The position numbers and the translations under genes were made by a program. Positions 6,856-44,101 of a DNA stretch of 64,000 bases are shown piece by piece. How positions within the stretch are numbered: the first letter of the stretch is position 1; the number at the start of each line of letters is the position of its first letter. Where the stretch lies: NCBI GenBank assembly GCA_019058365.1, contig JAHPZE010000014.1:1-64000 (forward strand), read 5' to 3'. The stretch is from Promethearchaeota archaeon (GTDB lineage Archaea; Asgardarchaeota; Lokiarchaeia; Sigyniarchaeales; SOKP01). The notes under the pieces are model-generated. The model saw only the letters and a list, made by a program, of their open reading frames with translations. It was not told where the DNA came from and did not search any database.

Positions 6856-8514
6856 TTGATTGGATTACTGTTGATACGTTTTGATCCTCTTTTTGGACCG
6901 AGTATTTTTTTGAAGGCACCAAAATCTTTAAATGAAGAGCTCATACAAAATATTCCTTCATTAATAGAGCTTCCAACAAAAGGAGTATTTATTCATATCT
7001 TTAAGGAAATTAAAACAGCAAATTTATTTTTCAAACAACCTAATAAGTTTGCTCGTGGAGGGTATGAAAGCTTTTTGATCACAATAATCACTGACATTAA
7101 AACTGAGATAAGTTTAATGCTTGCAAATAAGCTTCTTGAAGGTTTTGCTAATTACATTATAAATGTTAAAGATGCATATCTGGCTTTTGATTATGAACCT
7201 AAAGATCATAAAGCAGATGCAAATAAATTTAAGGAAATTGAGAACTTCTTTTTTTCCTATTTTAAGTCTATTAAACCTGTAATCCAAACTCTAGAAATGG
7301 CAGAGCATCGATATCAAGCTTTATTTCAGGCAGCTCGGGATGCAATTTTCATAATAAATCGTGATATGGGTACTGTCGTTGATGTAAATTTAGAAGCTGA
7401 AAAATTAGTGGAATTACCTAAGGAAGAATTAGTGGGTATTAAAGCATTAAAACTTGATTTATTTGATGAGGGATTAGTTGACCCAAATATGGTTAAGCAT
7501 TTAATAGATCAACCACCACCGATTATCTCAAGGATAAAAAAGTCTTCGGGTTCCAAATTATATCTTGAAGTGAATATTAATGAAATTCAACTTGGAGATG
7601 AGTTTTTTATTCAATATTTGTTTCATGATCTTACTGATATACAAAAAAATGAGGAAAAATTGAAGGAGCATGCTAAAAAAATTGACACTTTAAATACATT
7701 TATAAGTATCGCTAATCAAACTGATGATTTAAAAGATTTATTGAAAAAAACTATAGATAGTATTATTGATTTTTTAGATTTAAAGGGGTGCTGTATCTAT
7801 TTATTAGATAAAACAAGTAACATTGCTAAAATCATGGCACATAAAGGATTTCCGGGATTTTTTCTTGAACAAAATGATAATCTAGATATTAATGTAAGTC
7901 CTTTTCAAATTGTCTTTGCACAAGGAGTTGCATTATTCAATCAAAACTTCCCTGATATTCTGAAAGAATTTTTTAAAGGATTTGACTCTGTTTTTGGAGT
8001 GGTTATTCCATTATTTTCTAAATTTCAAATAATAGGAAGCATAAGTATGCTTTTAAAGGAACGAAGAACTCTTTCCGTTGAAGATATGGAATTGATAATT
8101 ACGATCGGATTAGAAATAGGAACTGCTTTAGAAAAGATGCAACATCAAGACGATTTAAAGCATAGTGAAGCACAGAATGCTATTCTTCTTAATCATATTC
8201 CATTCTCAATTTTTAAAATTTCAATTGAAGGTATTTTTCAAGAAATCAAATTAGATAAAAAATTAGAGCAAGTATTTCACCTGAAAAATCCATCTCAAAC
8301 TTTCATAGGGAAAAGCATACACGAGTTTCTACCAAAATATATTTCTGAAGAAGCAATGACTATCATAAAAAAAGCCCATGAAACCCAAGAAACTTTAGAA
8401 ATGAAATTTATTTTACCATTTAAAGGTAATCAGATAATATTTCGCACTAATTTTGTCCCGATTGGCAAAAAAGAGGTTTTAGTATTTCTTCAAAATCTAA
8501 CTAGAACTTGGTGA
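6856..8514 (+). CDS. uDENN/longin-like domain fused to PAS-GAF-PAS sensor domains
   Basis: N-term LLLIRFDPLFGP; RYQALFQAARDAIF..DVN (PAS); VIPLFSKFQIIGSI (GAF); second PAS; no kinase domain. Confidence 0.7.
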   Translation: MIGLLLIRFDPLFGPSIFLKAPKSLNEELIQNIPSLIELPTKGVFIHIFKEIKTANLFFKQPNKFARGGYESFLITIITDIKTEISLMLANKLLEGFANYIINVKDAYLAFDYEPKDHKADANKFKEIENFFFSYFKSIKPVIQTLEMAEHRYQALFQAARDAIFIINRDMGTVVDVNLEAEKLVELPKEELVGIKALKLDLFDEGLVDPNMVKHLIDQPPPIISRIKKSSGSKLYLEVNINEIQLGDEFFIQYLFHDLTDIQKNEEKLKEHAKKIDTLNTFISIANQTDDLKDLLKKTIDSIIDFLDLKGCCIYLLDKTSNIAKIMAHKGFPGFFLEQNDNLDINVSPFQIVFAQGVALFNQNFPDILKEFFKGFDSVFGVVIPLFSKFQIIGSISMLLKERRTLSVEDMELIITIGLEIGTALEKMQHQDDLKHSEAQNAILLNHIPFSIFKISIEGIFQEIKLDKKLEQVFHLKNPSQTFIGKSIHEFLPKYISEEAMTIIKKAHETQETLEMKFILPFKGNQIIFRTNFVPIGKKEVLVFLQNLTRTW

Positions 8515-9552
8515 CGATGCTAAAACGCTTCTTATTTTTTGGGCTTTTTCTTGAAGTTCAATCGAAAGCGAATCATCTCCAAGTTCAAGGCAAATGTTGC
8601 TAATTTTTTCAAAAATTTCTATAGCTTTATTAAAGTCTCCTTGTTCCAAAGCTTCTTGAACTTTATCCATCAATAAATCTCTCTCAAAAATAGGTTTCAG
8701 CAATGGTGATACTTTTGTATCCATATCTAAAAGATCTGCTATTATTCGGATCATTTTTGGTCTATTATTTTGGTCGATCGCAATCATAGAATATGTTTTT
8801 TGTCCCATTAATCTTTCTATATCCGCAATCTTCATTGCTTCGGGGAGATCTTGTTTATTGGCAATTACTGCTAAGCGCGCGTATGGGATGGTTTTATTTA
8901 CTAATTCAAAGAAAAATTTGCTTTTTTCTAAGTTTTCTAAAGTTGAATCGGTCATTAAGAGTACAGCATCACTTCCTCTTATAAATTTCTCCCAAAGAAA
9001 GTCAAATTGGTCTTGCCCTGCAAAATCCCAAAGAAAGAAGTGTAATTTGCCGATTTTTATAGTTGCAACTTCACCAGTAATTGTAGGAATATGCTGCATA
9101 GGAATCTCTTCTGATTTTATTAATTTAGTCGTTGTAGTCTTACCAACTCCGGAAAATCCCACAATCGATATTTTTGGTTTTAAATTTCTATGGATATTAT
9201 CAACAATTGGGTTAAAAACATCAGGGATTATTGAAACACTTCCATTTTTTAGGTTATCACCATAGAAATCTAAAAATTCTTTTTGAAAATTACGTAATTG
9301 GGGCTTAATATTCTTAAAATCATCCCCTAATCCCGTTACAAATAAAATAATTAGAGAAAAACTTTTCTCAACAATATATGTAAGTTTTACCTTAAAAAAT
9401 TCATATGATGCAGTTTCTTCAGAAAATTTTCCAAAAGCAGATTGTTTAATATTCATATACACATTTGTAAAGAGAGAATCGTCTAAACCTTTAGCGTAAT
9501 TCCGTTGATAGATTATATCATCATTTAAAATTATATAAACTTGTCTTAACAT
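8497..9552 (-). CDS. Arf-like small GTPase with N-terminal longin-like domain and C-terminal helical domain
   Basis: G1 GFSGVGKT, G2 PTIT, G3 WDFAGQ, G4 NKQD. Confidence 0.85.
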   Translation of the reverse strand: MLRQVYIILNDDIIYQRNYAKGLDDSLFTNVYMNIKQSAFGKFSEETASYEFFKVKLTYIVEKSFSLIILFVTGLGDDFKNIKPQLRNFQKEFLDFYGDNLKNGSVSIIPDVFNPIVDNIHRNLKPKISIVGFSGVGKTTTTKLIKSEEIPMQHIPTITGEVATIKIGKLHFFLWDFAGQDQFDFLWEKFIRGSDAVLLMTDSTLENLEKSKFFFELVNKTIPYARLAVIANKQDLPEAMKIADIERLMGQKTYSMIAIDQNNRPKMIRIIADLLDMDTKVSPLLKPIFERDLLMDKVQEALEQGDFNKAIEIFEKISNICLELGDDSLSIELQEKAQKIRSVLASSPSSS

Positions 9553-9577
9553 ATCTTTTTTCCTTATAATTTCTCAT

Positions 9578-10492
9578 TTAATTATAAATTTGATTTAAAT
9601 TTTCTTTTACATTACTTAATAGCTTTTGTAACTCGTTTTCATCTAAAATCTCTGAGAAAAATATTATATTTTTGAAATTTGAATTAAATTTGCTAATATC
9701 ATCTCCTAACATGTATAATATTTTTGAACCTGCATTTATAAACTTGCTTTTGGAATGTATTTCTTCTGTTGATTTATTAAATTGATAAATTACTTCATAT
9801 AAGTAATAAAGTGTACTAACATCAAAATCAGGAGTAGAAACTTGAATAATGAGATTACCTTTTTGATTAGAAACAACACACGTTATTTTCGATGAACCAT
9901 TCATGATTTTTTTAATAATTTCTTTTAGATTTGAAGTATCTTTTGAAAAGTTACCAAATATATCTGAAATAGCATTATAAACAGTATAAATTAAATTGGG
10001 ATGTAGACTAGTGAAATAAACTGGTAATTCCTCAGGTAGGTTTAATTGTTTAACTACTTGTCTTCTAATTAAAGCAAGCATATGACCAATCTTCTTATTA
10101 ATTAGGAGATCAATTTTATGAAGAAATAAGATAATCTTCGCATCCACTTCTATTTTTTTTTTAATTTCATAGATTTTCTTAATATCATCAATGATATCTT
10201 GAGAATTTTCGATCCAGGTAGGATAATCGAAAATATAAATTATCGCGTTCGTATCTCCAAATGTCATTATTTGTTTTTCTTCATCTTCTAATAATAATGG
10301 AAGTGATTGACCCGGAGTGTCTAATAAACTAATCTTTAAATCCATAAAATCATGGACAGAATACTGAATCCCTATTGTAGCTTCAAGGGGGAATATTATT
10401 AACTTGCTAGGGTCTTCTCCTTCGAGAATTACCTTTTTGATGGTTGTTTTTCCAACTTCAGGTTTCCCTATTAAACTAATCTTCGTTGTCAT
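9578..10492 (-). CDS. Rag/Gtr-like small GTPase with C-terminal roadblock-like domain
   Basis: GKPEVGKT, EATIG, DTPGQ, Rag-type HKID G4 and TSL G5. Confidence 0.8.
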   Translation of the reverse strand: MTTKISLIGKPEVGKTTIKKVILEGEDPSKLIIFPLEATIGIQYSVHDFMDLKISLLDTPGQSLPLLLEDEEKQIMTFGDTNAIIYIFDYPTWIENSQDIIDDIKKIYEIKKKIEVDAKIILFLHKIDLLINKKIGHMLALIRRQVVKQLNLPEELPVYFTSLHPNLIYTVYNAISDIFGNFSKDTSNLKEIIKKIMNGSSKITCVVSNQKGNLIIQVSTPDFDVSTLYYLYEVIYQFNKSTEEIHSKSKFINAGSKILYMLGDDISKFNSNFKNIIFFSEILDENELQKLLSNVKENLNQIYN

Positions 10493-10618: not shown

Positions 10619-11854
10619 TTAAATTTTAGAAGCGATTAAATCTATAATATCAATCAGTTTTATTTTTTCTTGAATATCTGGAGCCATTTCCTTATATGCA
10701 TCTTTTAAATTTCCTATACAAAATGGACAACTAGTTGTTAATATATCAGCTCCCGTTTCTAATGCTTCTCTAATTCTTTCTTTTGAAATTTCCAGAGCTA
10801 AATCTGGAAATTGACTTTTTACACCACCTCCCGCTCCACAGCACCAAGCATTTTTCCTATTTCTTTTCATTTCAATAAGTTCAATTCCAGGGATTTTAGA
10901 TAATACTTCACGAGGAATCTCATAAAGATCCATATGACGCCCGAGATGACAAGGATCATGGTATGTTACCTTTAATTTCTCACCTTCTTCTGCTTTAAAT
11001 AGAATCTCATTGTTATTCAACAAATCAATTAAAAATTCTGTGATATGTTTCACTTTAAAAGGTAAAGCTTTCCCTAACAATTCGGGATAATCTTTTTTCC
11101 ATGTTCTGTAGCATCCCGCACATGCAGTAAATAAAGTTTTAGTACCTTTTTTTTCAAATTCTGTAATATTATGCTTAATAATATCAGTTAAAGATTTTTT
11201 ATCACCAATACGTAATGCAATAGACCCACAGCACCATTCTTCTTTAGTCATAGCGATTTCTTTACCTGTGACTTTTAAAATCTTCATCATACTTCTTAGA
11301 GTATCTACTTGTCTTAAAGGCATTGTACAGCCACCAAAAAACATCAGTTCCCCTTGATCCTTGATTTCAGGAAATTCTTTTATCCATTCAAATTTTAAAT
11401 TTCTCTCCTCTCCATAGGGATTTTTCTTCTTGTCATTATCCATAAATTCGATTAAATCTCCATGTTTATCAAGAGGAGCAAAACCTGCTTCAACTAGATC
11501 TTTTCTCAACGCATCCCATACTTTTACATGATCTATCCAATTACATGTAGGAAGTACAATATATGGATTTTGAGACATATGGCAAACTTCAGCACAATTT
11601 CCACATTCAGAACATTGATATACCCATTCTGCGAGTTCTTTACTCAAAGGGATCTTACCTTCTAAAAGACTTTTAAGAACATTCATTCGTCCTCTTGCAA
11701 AGTAAATCTCAAATCCTTCTTCTCCTTTTGCTTCTTTCACTGGGCATGTTAAATATCTTCCTACAGCTGGTCTTATAGCATATCCACAATCACCACAACC
11801 CATGCAAGAAAATACTGCTTTCCATTCTTCTTTTAAATATTTCAAATTACTCAT
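10619..11854 (-). CDS. Fe-S oxidoreductase, HdrD/GlcF-like with CCG domains (start placed at MSNLK)
   Basis: CxxCxxC clusters, WCCG, YHDPCHLGR, CCGAGGG, CPFC; GGGGTGA SD-like motif at the end of the upstream gene. Confidence 0.88.
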   Translation of the reverse strand: MSNLKYLKEEWKAVFSCMGCGDCGYAIRPAVGRYLTCPVKEAKGEEGFEIYFARGRMNVLKSLLEGKIPLSKELAEWVYQCSECGNCAEVCHMSQNPYIVLPTCNWIDHVKVWDALRKDLVEAGFAPLDKHGDLIEFMDNDKKKNPYGEERNLKFEWIKEFPEIKDQGELMFFGGCTMPLRQVDTLRSMMKILKVTGKEIAMTKEEWCCGSIALRIGDKKSLTDIIKHNITEFEKKGTKTLFTACAGCYRTWKKDYPELLGKALPFKVKHITEFLIDLLNNNEILFKAEEGEKLKVTYHDPCHLGRHMDLYEIPREVLSKIPGIELIEMKRNRKNAWCCGAGGGVKSQFPDLALEISKERIREALETGADILTTSCPFCIGNLKDAYKEMAPDIQEKIKLIDIIDLIASKI

Positions 11855-11855
11855 T

Positions 11856-13373
11856 TCATTTATCACCCCAAAAATTAAACTTTCCTCTACTTAAAATCAT
11901 ATTTGGGTCGATGGTTTTTTTAATAGACTTCATTAATGTATAAAATTCTTCTGAATAAGCTCCAATATCTACCATCAAACGAGACATAAATTCTCCCATC
12001 ATATACCATTGCACCCCTTGTTTAGTTACTCTTTCTAATAATGATTTCCAAAGCGAAAGATTTAAATTATCAATAAAGTCATGGATTTTACCATCAACAT
12101 AACTCGAAAAACTAGTGAAACCACAAGTAATTTCCACATTATTTCCATCAATCAAAAGAATAGGACCACTTCCTGCAATAGGACGACTACCCGCAATATC
12201 AAATATTTTTCGCATATCTTCATCATGTTCCATATCCCACTGATCAATATCATTCATAATTTTAGGATATATATTAATAGGACAAAAACATTCTGCGGTT
12301 AATGGTTGCATTGTAGGAAATATACCCCATAAATTATGGTAGAATTGCCAATGCCCTTGTTCCGTATAGTGCCATTTAGCTATATTTCCATCAGAAATTT
12401 CTGATCCTAGGCATTCTGTCTTATTATCTAACATTATTTTATCAAGTAATTTAACTTTTTCGTCTAATTCCACTTCTGTATTTGCTTCTATTGTATAAAA
12501 AATGACCCCTCTTTTCTTTTTTAATTGATTCCACATAGGCATTAATCTTTCCTGTGTAGTTAATCTTACAATAAGGTCCATAATATACATAGCATCATAA
12601 ACATCAATTCCTCTATGTCGAATTTCATTTAATATCTTAGCTGAGACTTCTCTTTCTTTTCTGGGTAATTGAAATGTTTTATATTCAGCAAATTCGGGTT
12701 TTGGGAATACTTGTAATGATATTTTTGTTTTTACTCCAAAAATTCCATTATCACCACAAAATAATCCTGCTAAATCTGGACCATTGCCAAATCTGTTGAA
12801 TGGAACTTTTGAATATTTATTTGCTTGAGAGCCAGTTTCAATGATCTCTCCAGTGGGTAAAACTACCTCTAAAGACGTTAATTGATTAGTACATGCTCCA
12901 TATTTAGCACATCCACCCCCACCTACTGAATGATGTGAGATACCTCCACCTATAGACGCACTCATTCCTGATCCCGGACCCATACATCCCGTATAAAGGC
13001 CAAAATGACAGAGGTATTCATTTACTTTACCCCATGAAATTCCTGCTTCAACAGTAACTATTAGGTTTTCTTCGTCTAAGTTTAGTATATTGTTCATTCT
13101 TTTCATATCCAAGACAATTCCGGTATCTCCAATGGGTTTACTTCCCCCAAACTCACAAATTCCGGCTCCACGTGGAATAACAGTAATATTTTCATCATTA
13201 GCAATTTTAAGTATCTCTGAGATTTCTTGAGCATCCTTTGGTCTTATAACAATATCAGGAACTCCTTGTAAAACAATATCTACATTTCGTGAATAAGCGT
13301 GGCGTACATAAATATCATTAGATATGTACTTATCAGAAACAATCTTCTCCAATTTATTAAATAGATCTGACAT
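11856..13373 (-). CDS. FAD-linked oxidase/dehydrogenase (GlcD / D-lactate dehydrogenase family)
   Basis: PDIVIRP, IPRGAG, GDNGIFGVKTK, IKKTIDPNMILSRGK. Confidence 0.9.
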   Translation of the reverse strand: MSDLFNKLEKIVSDKYISNDIYVRHAYSRNVDIVLQGVPDIVIRPKDAQEISEILKIANDENITVIPRGAGICEFGGSKPIGDTGIVLDMKRMNNILNLDEENLIVTVEAGISWGKVNEYLCHFGLYTGCMGPGSGMSASIGGGISHHSVGGGGCAKYGACTNQLTSLEVVLPTGEIIETGSQANKYSKVPFNRFGNGPDLAGLFCGDNGIFGVKTKISLQVFPKPEFAEYKTFQLPRKEREVSAKILNEIRHRGIDVYDAMYIMDLIVRLTTQERLMPMWNQLKKKRGVIFYTIEANTEVELDEKVKLLDKIMLDNKTECLGSEISDGNIAKWHYTEQGHWQFYHNLWGIFPTMQPLTAECFCPINIYPKIMNDIDQWDMEHDEDMRKIFDIAGSRPIAGSGPILLIDGNNVEITCGFTSFSSYVDGKIHDFIDNLNLSLWKSLLERVTKQGVQWYMMGEFMSRLMVDIGAYSEEFYTLMKSIKKTIDPNMILSRGKFNFWGDK

Positions 13374-20534: not shown

Positions 20535-22051
20535 ATGAGCTATAAATTACCGGATGAAAAAGATTTAGAAGCTATGATCGGTATTGTTGGTAAAGATTAT
20601 GCTACAAATAATAAAGCTATTACAGCATCTTACTTGGCGAAATCAGTAATGGGTTTAGAAATCTATTATCCCAAAGCGGATAATGACTAAATAGCCAAAT
20701 CCCTGATATCGTCATTCGACCCAAATATGTAGAAGAAATTCGAAAAATTCTTGTATATTGTACTCAAGAAAAAATAGCGGTAAGTCCTGTTTCTGGGGGA
20801 TTATCTGGTGGATTTTCATGCCCAACAATTAAACCTGGTGGAGTTCTTCTTGATTTAGGAAGAATGAAAAGAATAATTGAAATCGATGAGGAAAATCGAT
20901 TCGCAATTGTAGAACCTGGAGTAACCATTGGAGAACTCTGGGCATATATGCACAAAAATACTCCTGAATGGGCACCACCAATACCAGATGGAGCTCCACC
21001 AGCCTCTACAGTTATGGGAGATGCCATTGATAGAGGATTTTCATTATATACTTCAAGTGTGGGACCACAAGGAGACAATTTTATGTGTGCTGAAGTTGTG
21101 TTTGCAAATGGTGATGTTTTAAGAACTGGTTCCTGGGCATTACCTACTGCGAAACCATTCTACAAATATGGACTTGGTCCTGATATATGGTCCCTTTTGA
21201 TGGGTAGTCAAGGGACTATGGGAGTAATCACCAAAGTAGCAGTAAAGATTTATCCACATCCCGAATTTAAAACTCTTGTAGTATGGGGCATGTCAAATCC
21301 TTATGATATGCAGAATTTAACTTTGGAAATCCAAAAACAAGAATTTGGAATCGCACATAATACAGTTATGGTCCAAGGTGGAAATTACCCTCTTGTGATG
21401 ACTAGATGGCCAAAGGATAAAGTACCGCATGATTACAAATTCTTTGAAGAAATGGGTTTTTCGCAGTGGTGGATGAATTTTGAATGCTGGGCTCAAACAC
21501 AGGAAGAATTAGACTATGTTACAAATAGAATTGATAAGATGGCAAAAGATTATAAAGCGAATAGAGCTAAAGACCCTGATTCAATAAAAGCCCAAGAATT
21601 ACATCCAAAACAAATCGCAAGTAGATTGAAGAAACCAAATAAAATTGCTGTTCCGTATGGTTTATGGGATGCAGGTTTCTTATTTATAACTTGGTATACA
21701 CCTTGGCCAGAATGTGCCCATTTCTGTGAAATATACTGTAACGCAATGGAAAAATATGGTTTTCCACCTACGATGTGGGTTGCTTCAATTGAACGCGGTC
21801 GACAAGCAATTTGTATGCCTATAATTTGCTTTGATAGCACAAAGACAGAGGAATTAGAAAGAGTTCAAGAATTGAATAGAGAAACTACTGAATATGGTTT
21901 GAAGCAAGGCTGGCTTAATTATAGACCAGATCCATATATTCATATCCAAGCTTATTATCAAGCAGGTATGTATTGGAAATATTTGAGAGCTTTCAAAAAG
22001 CTTGTAGATCCAAATATGATAATGCATCCAGGAAGATTAGCTCTTCCATAA
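20535..22051 (+). CDS. FAD-linked oxidase/dehydrogenase (GlcD-like), two exons 20535-20660 and 20693-22051, predicted 494 aa after splicing
   Basis: Exon 1 MSYKLP...SVMGLE joins exon 2 SQIPDIVIRPKYVEEIRKIL...; exon 2 is open from 20693 to the track ORF at 20864; colinear with the paralog at 11856-13373; GSQGTMGVITK, DPNMIMHPGR. Confidence 0.85.
20661..20692 (+). other. Putative 32-nt bulge-helix-bulge (tRNA-type) intron in a protein-coding gene
   Basis: Central helix TTAG(20655-58)/CTAA(20687-90), 3-nt bulges AAA(20659-61) and ATA(20691-93), outer helix GGT/GCC, inner hairpin ATTATCC/GGATAAT; canonical cuts restore the frame. Confidence 0.82.
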
Positions 22052-22073: not shown

Positions 22074-23495
22074 ATGGCTAAAACAGGAATGGAAAGATTA
22101 GAAGAATTAAAAAAGGATATTTATAAATGTATTCATTGTAAAGCATGTAAATTTGCCTATTCTAATGAACCTGACAGGGAAGGAATTGGAGTATTTTCTG
22201 GAAAGCAAAGTACAGTACTTTATGAAGGAATGGTTGACGCTTGTCCAGCGGGTATAGAATATGGATGGGAAGCCTTCTGGAATGCAGGTAAGATGTGGAT
22301 TGCTCGATCAATTTTAAGTGGAGACTTAGAATTTAGCGAAGAAGTTAGAGATGTAATTTTACCGTGTATTACATGTGGTCAGTGTTCTGCTCAATGTGAA
22401 AACAAGGTTCGTACTGTTGATATTATTGAGTCATTAAGAGCAGCCTGTATTGAATCTGGAATACCTATGATTGATAAACATGAGTTAGTAGATAAATTAG
22501 TAAAGGAACGAAATAATCCATATGGTGGAGCGGCAGCTGAAAGATTAAAATGGGCTAAGGATGCTGGTTTAGAGAAATTTATCAATAATAAAGACGCTAA
22601 AATTGCTTATTATGTTGGATGTACCGCAAGTTATCGACAAGTAGAGGTTGCTATAGCAACTGCAAAACTATTTGAGCAATTGGGTATGAATTTCACGTTA
22701 GTTGCTGATGAGGTATGCTGTGGAAGCCCATTCTTTAGGATTGGCGCAGTTGATACAGCTCAAGGATTAATGAGGAAAAATCTTGAAGCTTTTAAAGACG
22801 TAAAAATGGTCTATTTCAGCTGTGCTGGATGTTATCGAACTTTTACTATTGATTATCCAAAATGGATGGCTGCAGATGAAAAACTTCCATTCAAAACTCA
22901 ACATGCATTTGAACTTGTGGCACGATTAGTCCAACAAGGAAAAATTAAATTCAAACCTAACAAAGAATTAAAGGGCAAAGTGGTTACATACCATGATCCT
23001 TGTCACACTGGAAGACATTTTGCAATTGATATAGAACAAGAGATGATTGAGAAATCAAATAATCTTATGGTGGATAGTAGAAAAATTAAGAATGCAATCG
23101 AAGCGTGGTATGAAGTTCCACGGATAATTCTTAGAAAACTTGAAGAAGATGTTGGAATTAAATTTAAAGAAATGTACCGTATAAAACTTGATAGTATGTG
23201 TTGTGGCGCTGGTGGAGGAGTGAGGGCAGGATATCCTGAGTTTTCTCTTAGAACAGCAAGTCTTCGATGTGATGAAGCGAATGCAATAGGTGCGGACATC
23301 TTAACAACCGAATGTCCATTTTGTTGGAGGAATCTCTATGATGCTAATGAAATGTACAATCATGGCATGGTTGTTATGGGTGTTCTTCAAATGATTACAG
23401 AATATAATCTTTTGGATATTTTGGAGAAGCCAAAAGAAGGTGATTTCGTAACACCATCCATTAGAGAGTCAATGGAAGAAAAACCTAAAAAATGA
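22074..23495 (+). CDS. Fe-S oxidoreductase, HdrD/GlcF-like with CCG domains (start placed at MAKTG)
   Basis: CIHCKAC, CITCGQC, VCCG, YHDPCHTGR, CCGAGGG, CPFC; SD-like GAGGTTGA upstream. Confidence 0.88.
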   Translation: MAKTGMERLEELKKDIYKCIHCKACKFAYSNEPDREGIGVFSGKQSTVLYEGMVDACPAGIEYGWEAFWNAGKMWIARSILSGDLEFSEEVRDVILPCITCGQCSAQCENKVRTVDIIESLRAACIESGIPMIDKHELVDKLVKERNNPYGGAAAERLKWAKDAGLEKFINNKDAKIAYYVGCTASYRQVEVAIATAKLFEQLGMNFTLVADEVCCGSPFFRIGAVDTAQGLMRKNLEAFKDVKMVYFSCAGCYRTFTIDYPKWMAADEKLPFKTQHAFELVARLVQQGKIKFKPNKELKGKVVTYHDPCHTGRHFAIDIEQEMIEKSNNLMVDSRKIKNAIEAWYEVPRIILRKLEEDVGIKFKEMYRIKLDSMCCGAGGGVRAGYPEFSLRTASLRCDEANAIGADILTTECPFCWRNLYDANEMYNHGMVVMGVLQMITEYNLLDILEKPKEGDFVTPSIRESMEEKPKK

Positions 23496-43906: not shown

Positions 43907-44009
43907 GGGAGGGTAGTCTAGCTTGGTATGATACATTAGCTTGATTTTTTAAGCAAAGTTAAATCGGCTGGGGGCCGAGTGGTCGGGGGTTCAATTCCCC
44001 CCTCTCCCA
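43907..44009 (+). tRNA. tRNA-Pro(GGG) with a 29-nt intron (43935-43963) at position 27/28
   Basis: Acceptor GGGAGGG/CTCTCCC, T arm GGGGG-TTCAATT-CCCCC, anticodon stem C|TCGG/CCGAG around loop CTGGGGG; BHB-like junction; CCA not encoded. Confidence 0.88.
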
Positions 44010-44101
44010 TTTTTGAAATTTTGGCAAAATTAAATATATTAAATAAGAAAGGAAAAATCTAAAAAAAATGCTAAATTTAAATAAATAAAATTCAAGATTA
44101 G

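Follow-up and report, generated by a model that had tools for sequence, protein, structure and literature searches.

Known mRNA introns in archaea

Splicing of archaeal coding sequence is documented in the searchable papers for a sole case (PMC2738675; 'one example' according to PMC7714728), the intron of the cbf5 pre-mRNA of Crenarchaeota (Desulfurococcales and Sulfolobales; Watanabe 2002, Yoshinari 2006, Yokobori 2009 = PMC2738675), which is cleaved by the tRNA splicing endonuclease EndA at a motif of the bulge-helix-bulge (BHB) type (PMC2738675). Here we describe a 32-nucleotide (nt) insert that interrupts a flavin adenine dinucleotide (FAD) oxidoreductase gene of a Promethearchaeota archaeon (genome G000, assembly GCA_019058365.1; the window is the 64,000-nt stretch analysed, positions 1 to 64,000 of contig JAHPZE010000014.1). 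Judging from sequence comparison, this insert is very probably a tRNA-type BHB intron that is removed from the mRNA by EndA and RtcB.

Like the cbf5 intron, the insert is short, lies within a coding sequence (CDS), is predicted to form a BHB or relaxed BHB cut after the second base of each bulge, occurs together with a two-subunit EndA and is patchily distributed among relatives. The cbf5 intron occupies a single site in one RNA-modification gene, is inherited vertically with losses, and its splicing has been demonstrated; in the present case, in contrast, splicing is a prediction from DNA, the gene is a metabolic one of an Asgard archaeon with 13 or more independent sites, many further genes of the genome are affected, and gain and loss are horizontal, by way of recombination tracts. 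The chemistry would appear to be the same as that of the cbf5 intron, but the sequences point to introns that are numerous, recurrent and exchanged between species.

The BHB intron of Haloferax HVO_1309 (PMC7714728) is also an mRNA substrate of EndA, there shown in vitro and by a circular RNA, but it is 46 nt long, lies in the 5' untranslated region and interrupts no reading frame. Asgard archaea have repeatedly and independently gained non-canonical tRNA introns (bioRxiv 10.64898/2026.10.13.758758), which share with our case the phylum, the BHB enrichment at homology-defined boundaries, the two EndA paralogues and the size (~29-30 nt in this genus); that preprint, however, deals with tRNA genes only, and its main text contains neither 'mRNA' nor 'cbf5'. 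A literature search that covered few subscription papers, and not the predictions of 2006-07 to which PMC2738675 refers, found no report of Asgard coding-sequence introns.

Gene structure and boundaries of the insert

The interrupted gene is organized as follows:

20535..20660 (+), exon 1 of the VAO/PCMH-family FAD oxidoreductase gene, 42 codons (MSYKLP...VMGLE); N-terminus near-invariant in intron-less orthologs
20661..20692 (+), putative BHB-type intron of 32 nt, phase 0, frameshifting; carried by 12 of the 39 congeners and missing from the other 27
20693..22051 (+), exon 2, 452 codons plus stop; Pfam FAD_binding_4 from its residue 4

The open reading frame (ORF) starts at ATG 20535, and the exon-1 frame ends within the insert at TAA 20688-90, giving 51 amino acids (aa) if unspliced; in the exon-2 frame the insert contains TAA and TGA, and the earliest in-frame ATG of exon 2 is at 20864. 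Once 20661-20692 is deleted, 494 aa are encoded without a stop; this product aligns colinearly, at 32% identity across 225 aa, with that of the paralog at 11856-13373. Deletions around the site that restore an open frame number 881, and only two of them, 20661-92 and 20662-93, lead to the GLESQIPD junction of the orthologs, both with the same resulting sequence; the cut sites predicted from the BHB correspond to one of these two equivalent deletions (20661-92). The predicted spliced mRNA has GGTTTAGAA directly joined to AGCCAAATC, and the junction peptide of the spliced product would be SVMGLESQIPDIVIRPK. An earlier note on this DNA had given coordinates for the gene, the parts of the BHB and the 494-aa product, all of which were correct on recheck; it had also taken the N-terminal 42 aa as part of the protein, which the orthologs support, exon 1 being near-invariant in intron-less orthologs and constrained in intron-bearing ones.

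Conservation of the insert and selection on the host gene

The genomes closest to this one are metagenome-assembled genomes of Promethearchaeia/Lokiarchaeia. Twelve of the 39 congeneric genomes carry a 32-nt insert at the same site, and the other 27 are contiguous through GLESQIP; the insert was further found in eight other assemblies, one Logan assembly identical to the window and seven JGI metagenome contigs. DNA run SRR14802574 contains the locus as well. All 10 full-length intron-bearing alleles encode 493-495 aa without stops once spliced, with dN/dS values (nonsynonymous to synonymous substitution rates) against this genome of 0.045-0.087, similar to those of intron-less alleles, including comparisons with a dS of 1.4-1.6. 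Exon 1 of the intron-bearing genomes displays proportions of nonsynonymous differences (pN) of 0.01-0.065 versus synonymous ones (pS) of 0.12-0.62. This substitution pattern indicates that the spliced frame is under purifying selection and the gene functional.

The insert itself does not vary as a protein-coding segment does, since 8 of its 10 variable positions would be codon positions 1-2. Across the 12 close copies 98.3% of the pair cells are kept versus 21-46% in slid controls, a lenient control because the structure was derived from one of the compared sequences. In locus L236 a divergent insert of 31 nt occupies this site; its stem is another one, and the motif is retained.

Bulge-helix-bulge structure

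The predicted structure comprises these parts:

20655..20658 (+), exon strand of the central helix, TTAG; invariant in the 12 intron-bearing genomes, variable in intron-less alleles
20687..20690 (+), intron strand of the central helix, CTAA; invariant in the 12 genomes
20659..20661 (+), 5' bulge AAA, predicted cut 20660/20661; unpaired probability 0.97-1.0
20691..20693 (+), 3' bulge ATA, which several relatives have as AGA; cut predicted at 20692/20693; unpaired probability 0.5-0.7
20662..20686 (+), inner hairpin, within the intron; pairing retained in 96% of cells when the genomes are compared
20642..20707 (+), closure of the motif by pairing between the exons, through the outer helix 20652-54/20694-96 and a further helix 20642-46/20703-07

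The central helix consists of four Watson-Crick pairs (TTAG/CTAA), with the two 3-nt bulges on opposite strands and helices on its outer and inner sides, the outer one (GGT 20652-54/GCC 20694-96) including one G-U pair. Folding of the 71-nt region gave z = -2.93 against shuffles, with pair probabilities of ~0.5 for the central helix and 0.94-1.0 for most pairs of the inner stem, and the changes seen across genomes in the inner hairpin fall at the bulge, the loop or the stem end, or turn G-C into G-U. A search of the insert against Rfam returned no relevant family; at 32 nt it is not a group I or group II self-splicing intron, whose catalytic core takes up hundreds of bases.

Inserts at other sites of the same gene

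Comparison of 80 GTDB loci revealed 10 distinct sites in the gene, with inserts 29-34 nt long. The central helix is complete in the BHB register at 7 of these 10, versus 1-2 per shifted register and 2 in antisense. In genome G035 (L029 / L037, G035:C7:14760-16340) the intron described here is absent and four others are present in the gene (31, 32, 28 and 30 nt); the ortholog encodes 494 aa after deleting all four. Adding the three further G035 sites to the 10 brings the count of distinct sites in the gene across Promethearchaeia to at least 13, all with inserts of 28-34 nt.

Nine other sites of the gene hold BHB-like inserts of 29-34 nt in loci L245, L256, L263, L265, L266, L273 and L278; L263 and L266 have three each, with sequences that differ at CDS 1468. 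Some of the BHB-like inserts at the gene's other sites are in frame and stop-free. Few other inserts were seen in the 400 kb sampled from G035; the flavoenzyme gene, with four of them there, may be a hotspot of insertion.

Inserts in other genes

A homology-guided census was run both ways between this genome and ~1.9 Mb of sequence of four relatives. It found 8 ORF-breaking inserts, and with four more from the alignment of the flavoenzyme gene the set came to 12, all of 28-32 nt and all able to fold. Four of four central pairs at the BHB register were present in 9 of these 12, versus 0-2 of 12 at shifted registers and 2 of 12 in antisense, while among non-breaking indels (12-36 nt) only 2 of 21 had them. 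The inserts detected in other genes of this genome are listed below, together with a candidate from the motif scan:

G000 C52:2085 (+), L191, rpoA1, 30-nt stop-containing BHB-like insert between MGHFGH and IELARP; single gene
G000 C52:30990 (+), L192, EF-1alpha, 32-nt frameshifting BHB-like insert splitting the P-loop between GHIDHG and KST; single copy
G000 C24:5759 (+), carB, 30-31-nt ORF-breaking hairpin
G000 C46:248835 (-), radA, 30-31-nt ORF-breaking hairpin
G000 C7:91535 (+), JAMM-motif gene, 30-31-nt ORF-breaking hairpin
G000 C49:53861 (+), acetoacetate-CoA ligase, 30-31-nt ORF-breaking hairpin
G000 C46:48704 (+), probable acyl-CoA dehydrogenase (named from sequence only), 30-31-nt ORF-breaking hairpin
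G000 C9:585 (-), L198, LsrF-type aldolase/thiolase gene, candidate 32-nt perfect-looking BHB insert; motif scan alone

No second close copy of rpoA1, EF-1alpha, carB or radA exists in this genome, so a step that removes the inserts from these broken single-copy genes must exist. Six ORF-breaking inserts in 1.13 Mb of compared coding DNA of this genome suggest some tens of such inserts per genome at least, a lower bound because pairwise comparison is blind to shared introns. The intron of the flavoenzyme gene is one of many mini-introns, not a unique one.

Among the relatives, G031 has a 30-nt stop-containing BHB-like insert (L110:1452, +) that is absent from this genome, and G035 a 31-nt candidate at L032:4085.

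Splicing machinery and proposed mechanism

The genome encodes two EndA homologues (PF01974; contigs C26 and C12, the C26 copy scoring over the TIGR00324 cut-off) and one RtcB (PF01139; contig C35), and all three genes are uninterrupted in their matched parts. Two-subunit EndA is common in Asgard archaea (10.64898/2026.10.13.758758) and is the type associated with relaxed BHB substrates, cbf5 included (PMC2738675). Once transcribed, the pre-mRNA would fold into the BHB, the two-subunit EndA would cut after the second base of each bulge (20660/20661 and 20692/20693), and RtcB would ligate the exons into the mRNA of the 494-aa flavoenzyme with release of the intron; the grounds for proposing these steps are the geometry, the precedent of cbf5 and the fact that essential genes could not do without them. 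Removal by the tRNA machinery would most likely be constitutive and of little fitness effect, so that Promethearchaeia could tolerate 28-34-nt hairpin introns in ordinary genes. The earlier note had proposed an EndA/RtcB-type BHB mRNA intron, a proposal strongly supported by the boundaries, conservation, selection, recurrence and enzyme genes, and which at the RNA level stands as a prediction.

Several results weigh against this interpretation. The exact BHB conformer (-14.5 kcal/mol) lies 1.0 above the predicted minimum, a fold whose helix has 6 bp and whose 3' bulge has 2 nt. Genome scans with the motif only (BHB plus frame restoration, with or without a coding score) gave no excess over decoys, and the four flavoenzyme inserts of the census were added by hand. 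The alleles contiguous through GLESQIPD-type sequence that had been predicted for orthologs were found in the 27 congeners, but the compensatory changes predicted with them were not, no double-sided change being seen among the 12 close copies. When both forms were sought in JGI contigs, a collection that is mostly DNA, 7 were unspliced and 0 spliced; no contig with the spliced junction and intron-allele flanks was found, and those full-length cluster members that were traced to contigs are the genomic intron-less allele, with its TCG codon. As regards the motif, the loose BHB is commonplace in this 29.5% GC genome (487,577 matches), and together with the lack of excess in the motif-only scans this means that significance comes from the match with homology-defined boundaries, so that the case rests on comparative evidence.

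Alternative explanations

Translational recoding, in which the ribosome would either hop over the hairpin, as in elements of the T4 gene 60 / byp type, or shift by -1, and so make a nearly full-length protein with the RNA left uncut, appears very unlikely. The insert has a hairpin and stop codons within it, as bypass elements do (PMC8211752), and the Leu codons TTA at 20655 and CTA at 20687 are 32 nt apart; but for the conserved junction the take-off and landing codons of a bypass would be mismatched (GAA versus AAT) with no stop directly after take-off, and a hop between the Leu codons would leave a variable N/K in place of Glu-Ser or Glu-Ala/Gly, the pairs seen in 63 of 64 intron-less orthologs, always with Glu. 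As for a -1 frameshift, the frames overlap by 4 nt only (20687-90) and there is no slippery heptamer X XXY YYZ; moreover, insert lengths of 28-34 nt span all three phases, all with BHB geometry. Even less credence can be given to a pseudogene, or to translation of exon 2 alone from ATG 20864 or from a non-canonical start, a reading that could draw on the intact allele of most relatives and on the 395-450-aa products that gene callers predict: both exons are strongly constrained in intron-bearing genomes (dS to ~1.6), a start at 20864 would lose ~55 residues of the FAD-binding domain, and rpoA1 and EF-1alpha, each present once, are interrupted by inserts of this kind too. Excision at the DNA level by a tiny excisable element, or removal from RNA by an enzyme other than EndA, is about as improbable as recoding, given that a precise-deletion allele with intron-type flanks is not seen in DNA collections (0 of 7 JGI contigs), that terminal repeats and a nearby recombinase are absent, and that the geometry is strand-specific and fits EndA. 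Assembly errors do produce similar objects, as in G022 (L020 / L278, CDS ~790), where a 26-nt 'insert' was rejected as a scaffold gap of Ns with duplicated flanks; in the case of our insert this explanation is refuted and its probability practically nil, because the insert is present, with substitutions and independently assembled by different pipelines, in the 12 genomes and the eight further assemblies, which confirms that it is genomic as had been assumed.

A different question concerns function, and is compatible with splicing: the intron might serve as a regulated switch of the operon, in the manner of XBP1/HAC1. Splicing of XBP1/HAC1 mRNA by IRE1 and RtcB (reviewed in PMC13149111) is non-spliceosomal, removes a short frameshifting intron and uses tRNA-ligase ligation; IRE1, however, cuts stem-loops and not a BHB, the process is stress-regulated with one dedicated target, and the likeness implies no homology. 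In favour of a switch, unspliced RNA would give merely the 51-aa peptide, and the intron is well conserved in sequence and structure in 12 species, although that conservation can be ascribed to the need to be spliced. Against it, 27 of 39 congeners are intron-less, including relatives 93-94% identical, the intron is gained and lost by recombination, different introns occupy 12 other sites of the gene, and similar ones interrupt constantly expressed housekeeping genes. The regulatory role advanced in the earlier note is thus unsupported, and we consider it improbable; constitutive removal of a BHB intron by EndA and RtcB is the reading we favour.

Gain, loss and movement of the intron

Presence and absence of the intron do not follow the tree that the remainder of the gene gives. 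Genomes G003 and G063 are ~80% identical to this clade, yet their intron sits in a tract that resembles the intron-bearing clade: mismatch with G061 is 5.6% over CDS 30-300 and 22.8% elsewhere for G003 (p 2e-12; here and below the tract limits were set by eye, so that p-values are optimistic), and 6.4% over CDS 45-155 versus 21.4% elsewhere for G063 (p 5e-5), which in that tract differs by 20% from its own sister G074, versus 6.9% elsewhere. Intron-less genomes at equal distance showed no such dip in mismatch, and the signal persists when the BHB-paired exon bases are left out. Conversely, G031 and G021, 93-94% identical to this genome, are intron-less in a locally divergent tract (20-23% versus 2-4% elsewhere, p below 1e-11) with a TCN serine codon; precise cDNA-mediated loss was considered for both and rejected, the flanks being locally divergent and the Ser codon TCN. 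These patterns indicate at least two gains and one or two loss events, by homologous recombination of 0.1-0.3 kb tracts.

Co-transfer of flanks is a feature of homing introns, but the losses occurred by the same route; as gains and losses both occur, drive is not shown. The intron contains no ORF and the flanking genes are not endonucleases. No copy or clear source of the intron was found elsewhere in the genome or in the ~1.9 Mb of relatives' DNA, the best match being 15 nt (E 0.07). That Loki-type Asgard archaea combine genome-wide spliceosome-free mRNA splicing with ~30-nt introns actively created with site-matched BHB ends and spread from species to species by biased, homing-like gene conversion is a conjecture we regard as rather unlikely as a whole; its first part taken by itself, genome-wide splicing, is quite probable. 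If the whole were true, the archaea nearest to eukaryotes would harbour mobile introns of a protein-free class.

Host enzyme, operon and neighbouring genes

The host protein is a flavoprotein of the VAO/PCMH family, to which GlcD and LctD also belong; PF01565 starts at residue 4 of exon 2, and its best solved relative is the p-cresol methylhydroxylase PchF (PDB 1wve/1dii; full-length match, E 5e-30). It had been called GlcD-like, a label that holds at the level of fold only: the match to GlcD TIGR00387, in exon 2 only, reaches 93.2 bits versus an equivalog cut-off of 567.9. As in GlcD/GlcF systems, the flavoprotein is paired with a CCG/4Fe-4S subunit, although it differs from GlcD itself in falling far under the cut-off. 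The gene that follows is:

22074..23495 (+), HdrD/GlcF-type Fe-S gene (CCG + 4Fe-4S domains), uninterrupted; adjacent in relatives too

It is probably the co-transcribed partner subunit. A scan for promoters and terminators at the locus gave results at chance level, with a bacterial model applied to an archaeal host. The FAD oxidoreductase family has about ten paralogs in the genome, and a paralogous pair of FAD oxidoreductase and CCG/Fe-S genes, uninterrupted, lies at 10619-13373 (-) of the window. The mis-annotation that had been foreseen for this type of gene does occur: the database entry for the Loki_b32 allele, which bears the intron, is TKJ20370.1, a hypothetical protein cut short at 450 aa.

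Elsewhere in the window, two eukaryote-like small GTPase genes with a P-loop, one of them N-terminally extended, are located at 8497-10492 (-), as is typical of Asgard archaea. ARAGORN calls a tRNA-Leu(taa) at 43907-44010 (+), which by eye is better read as tRNA-Pro(GGG) with a candidate 29-nt non-canonical intron at ~43935-43963 and a relaxed BHB (local folding z 0.0, not significant); introns like this one probably explain why the program detects no more than 30 tRNAs in the genome.

Implications

Asgard gene catalogues are wrong at sites of this kind, as TKJ20370.1 illustrates, which affects metabolic reconstruction and phylogenomics. The flavoenzyme gene, with its 13 independent sites and visible recombination tracts, offers a handy model of intron birth, spread and loss. 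If the inserts are spliced as we propose, the nearest prokaryotic relatives of eukaryotes would already need mRNA splicing for their RNA polymerase, EF-1alpha and RadA genes, and several introns per gene would be tolerated in Asgard archaea; this would bear on how intron-rich genes may have arisen ahead of the spliceosome, and on where mRNA splicing that depends on a tRNA ligase came from.
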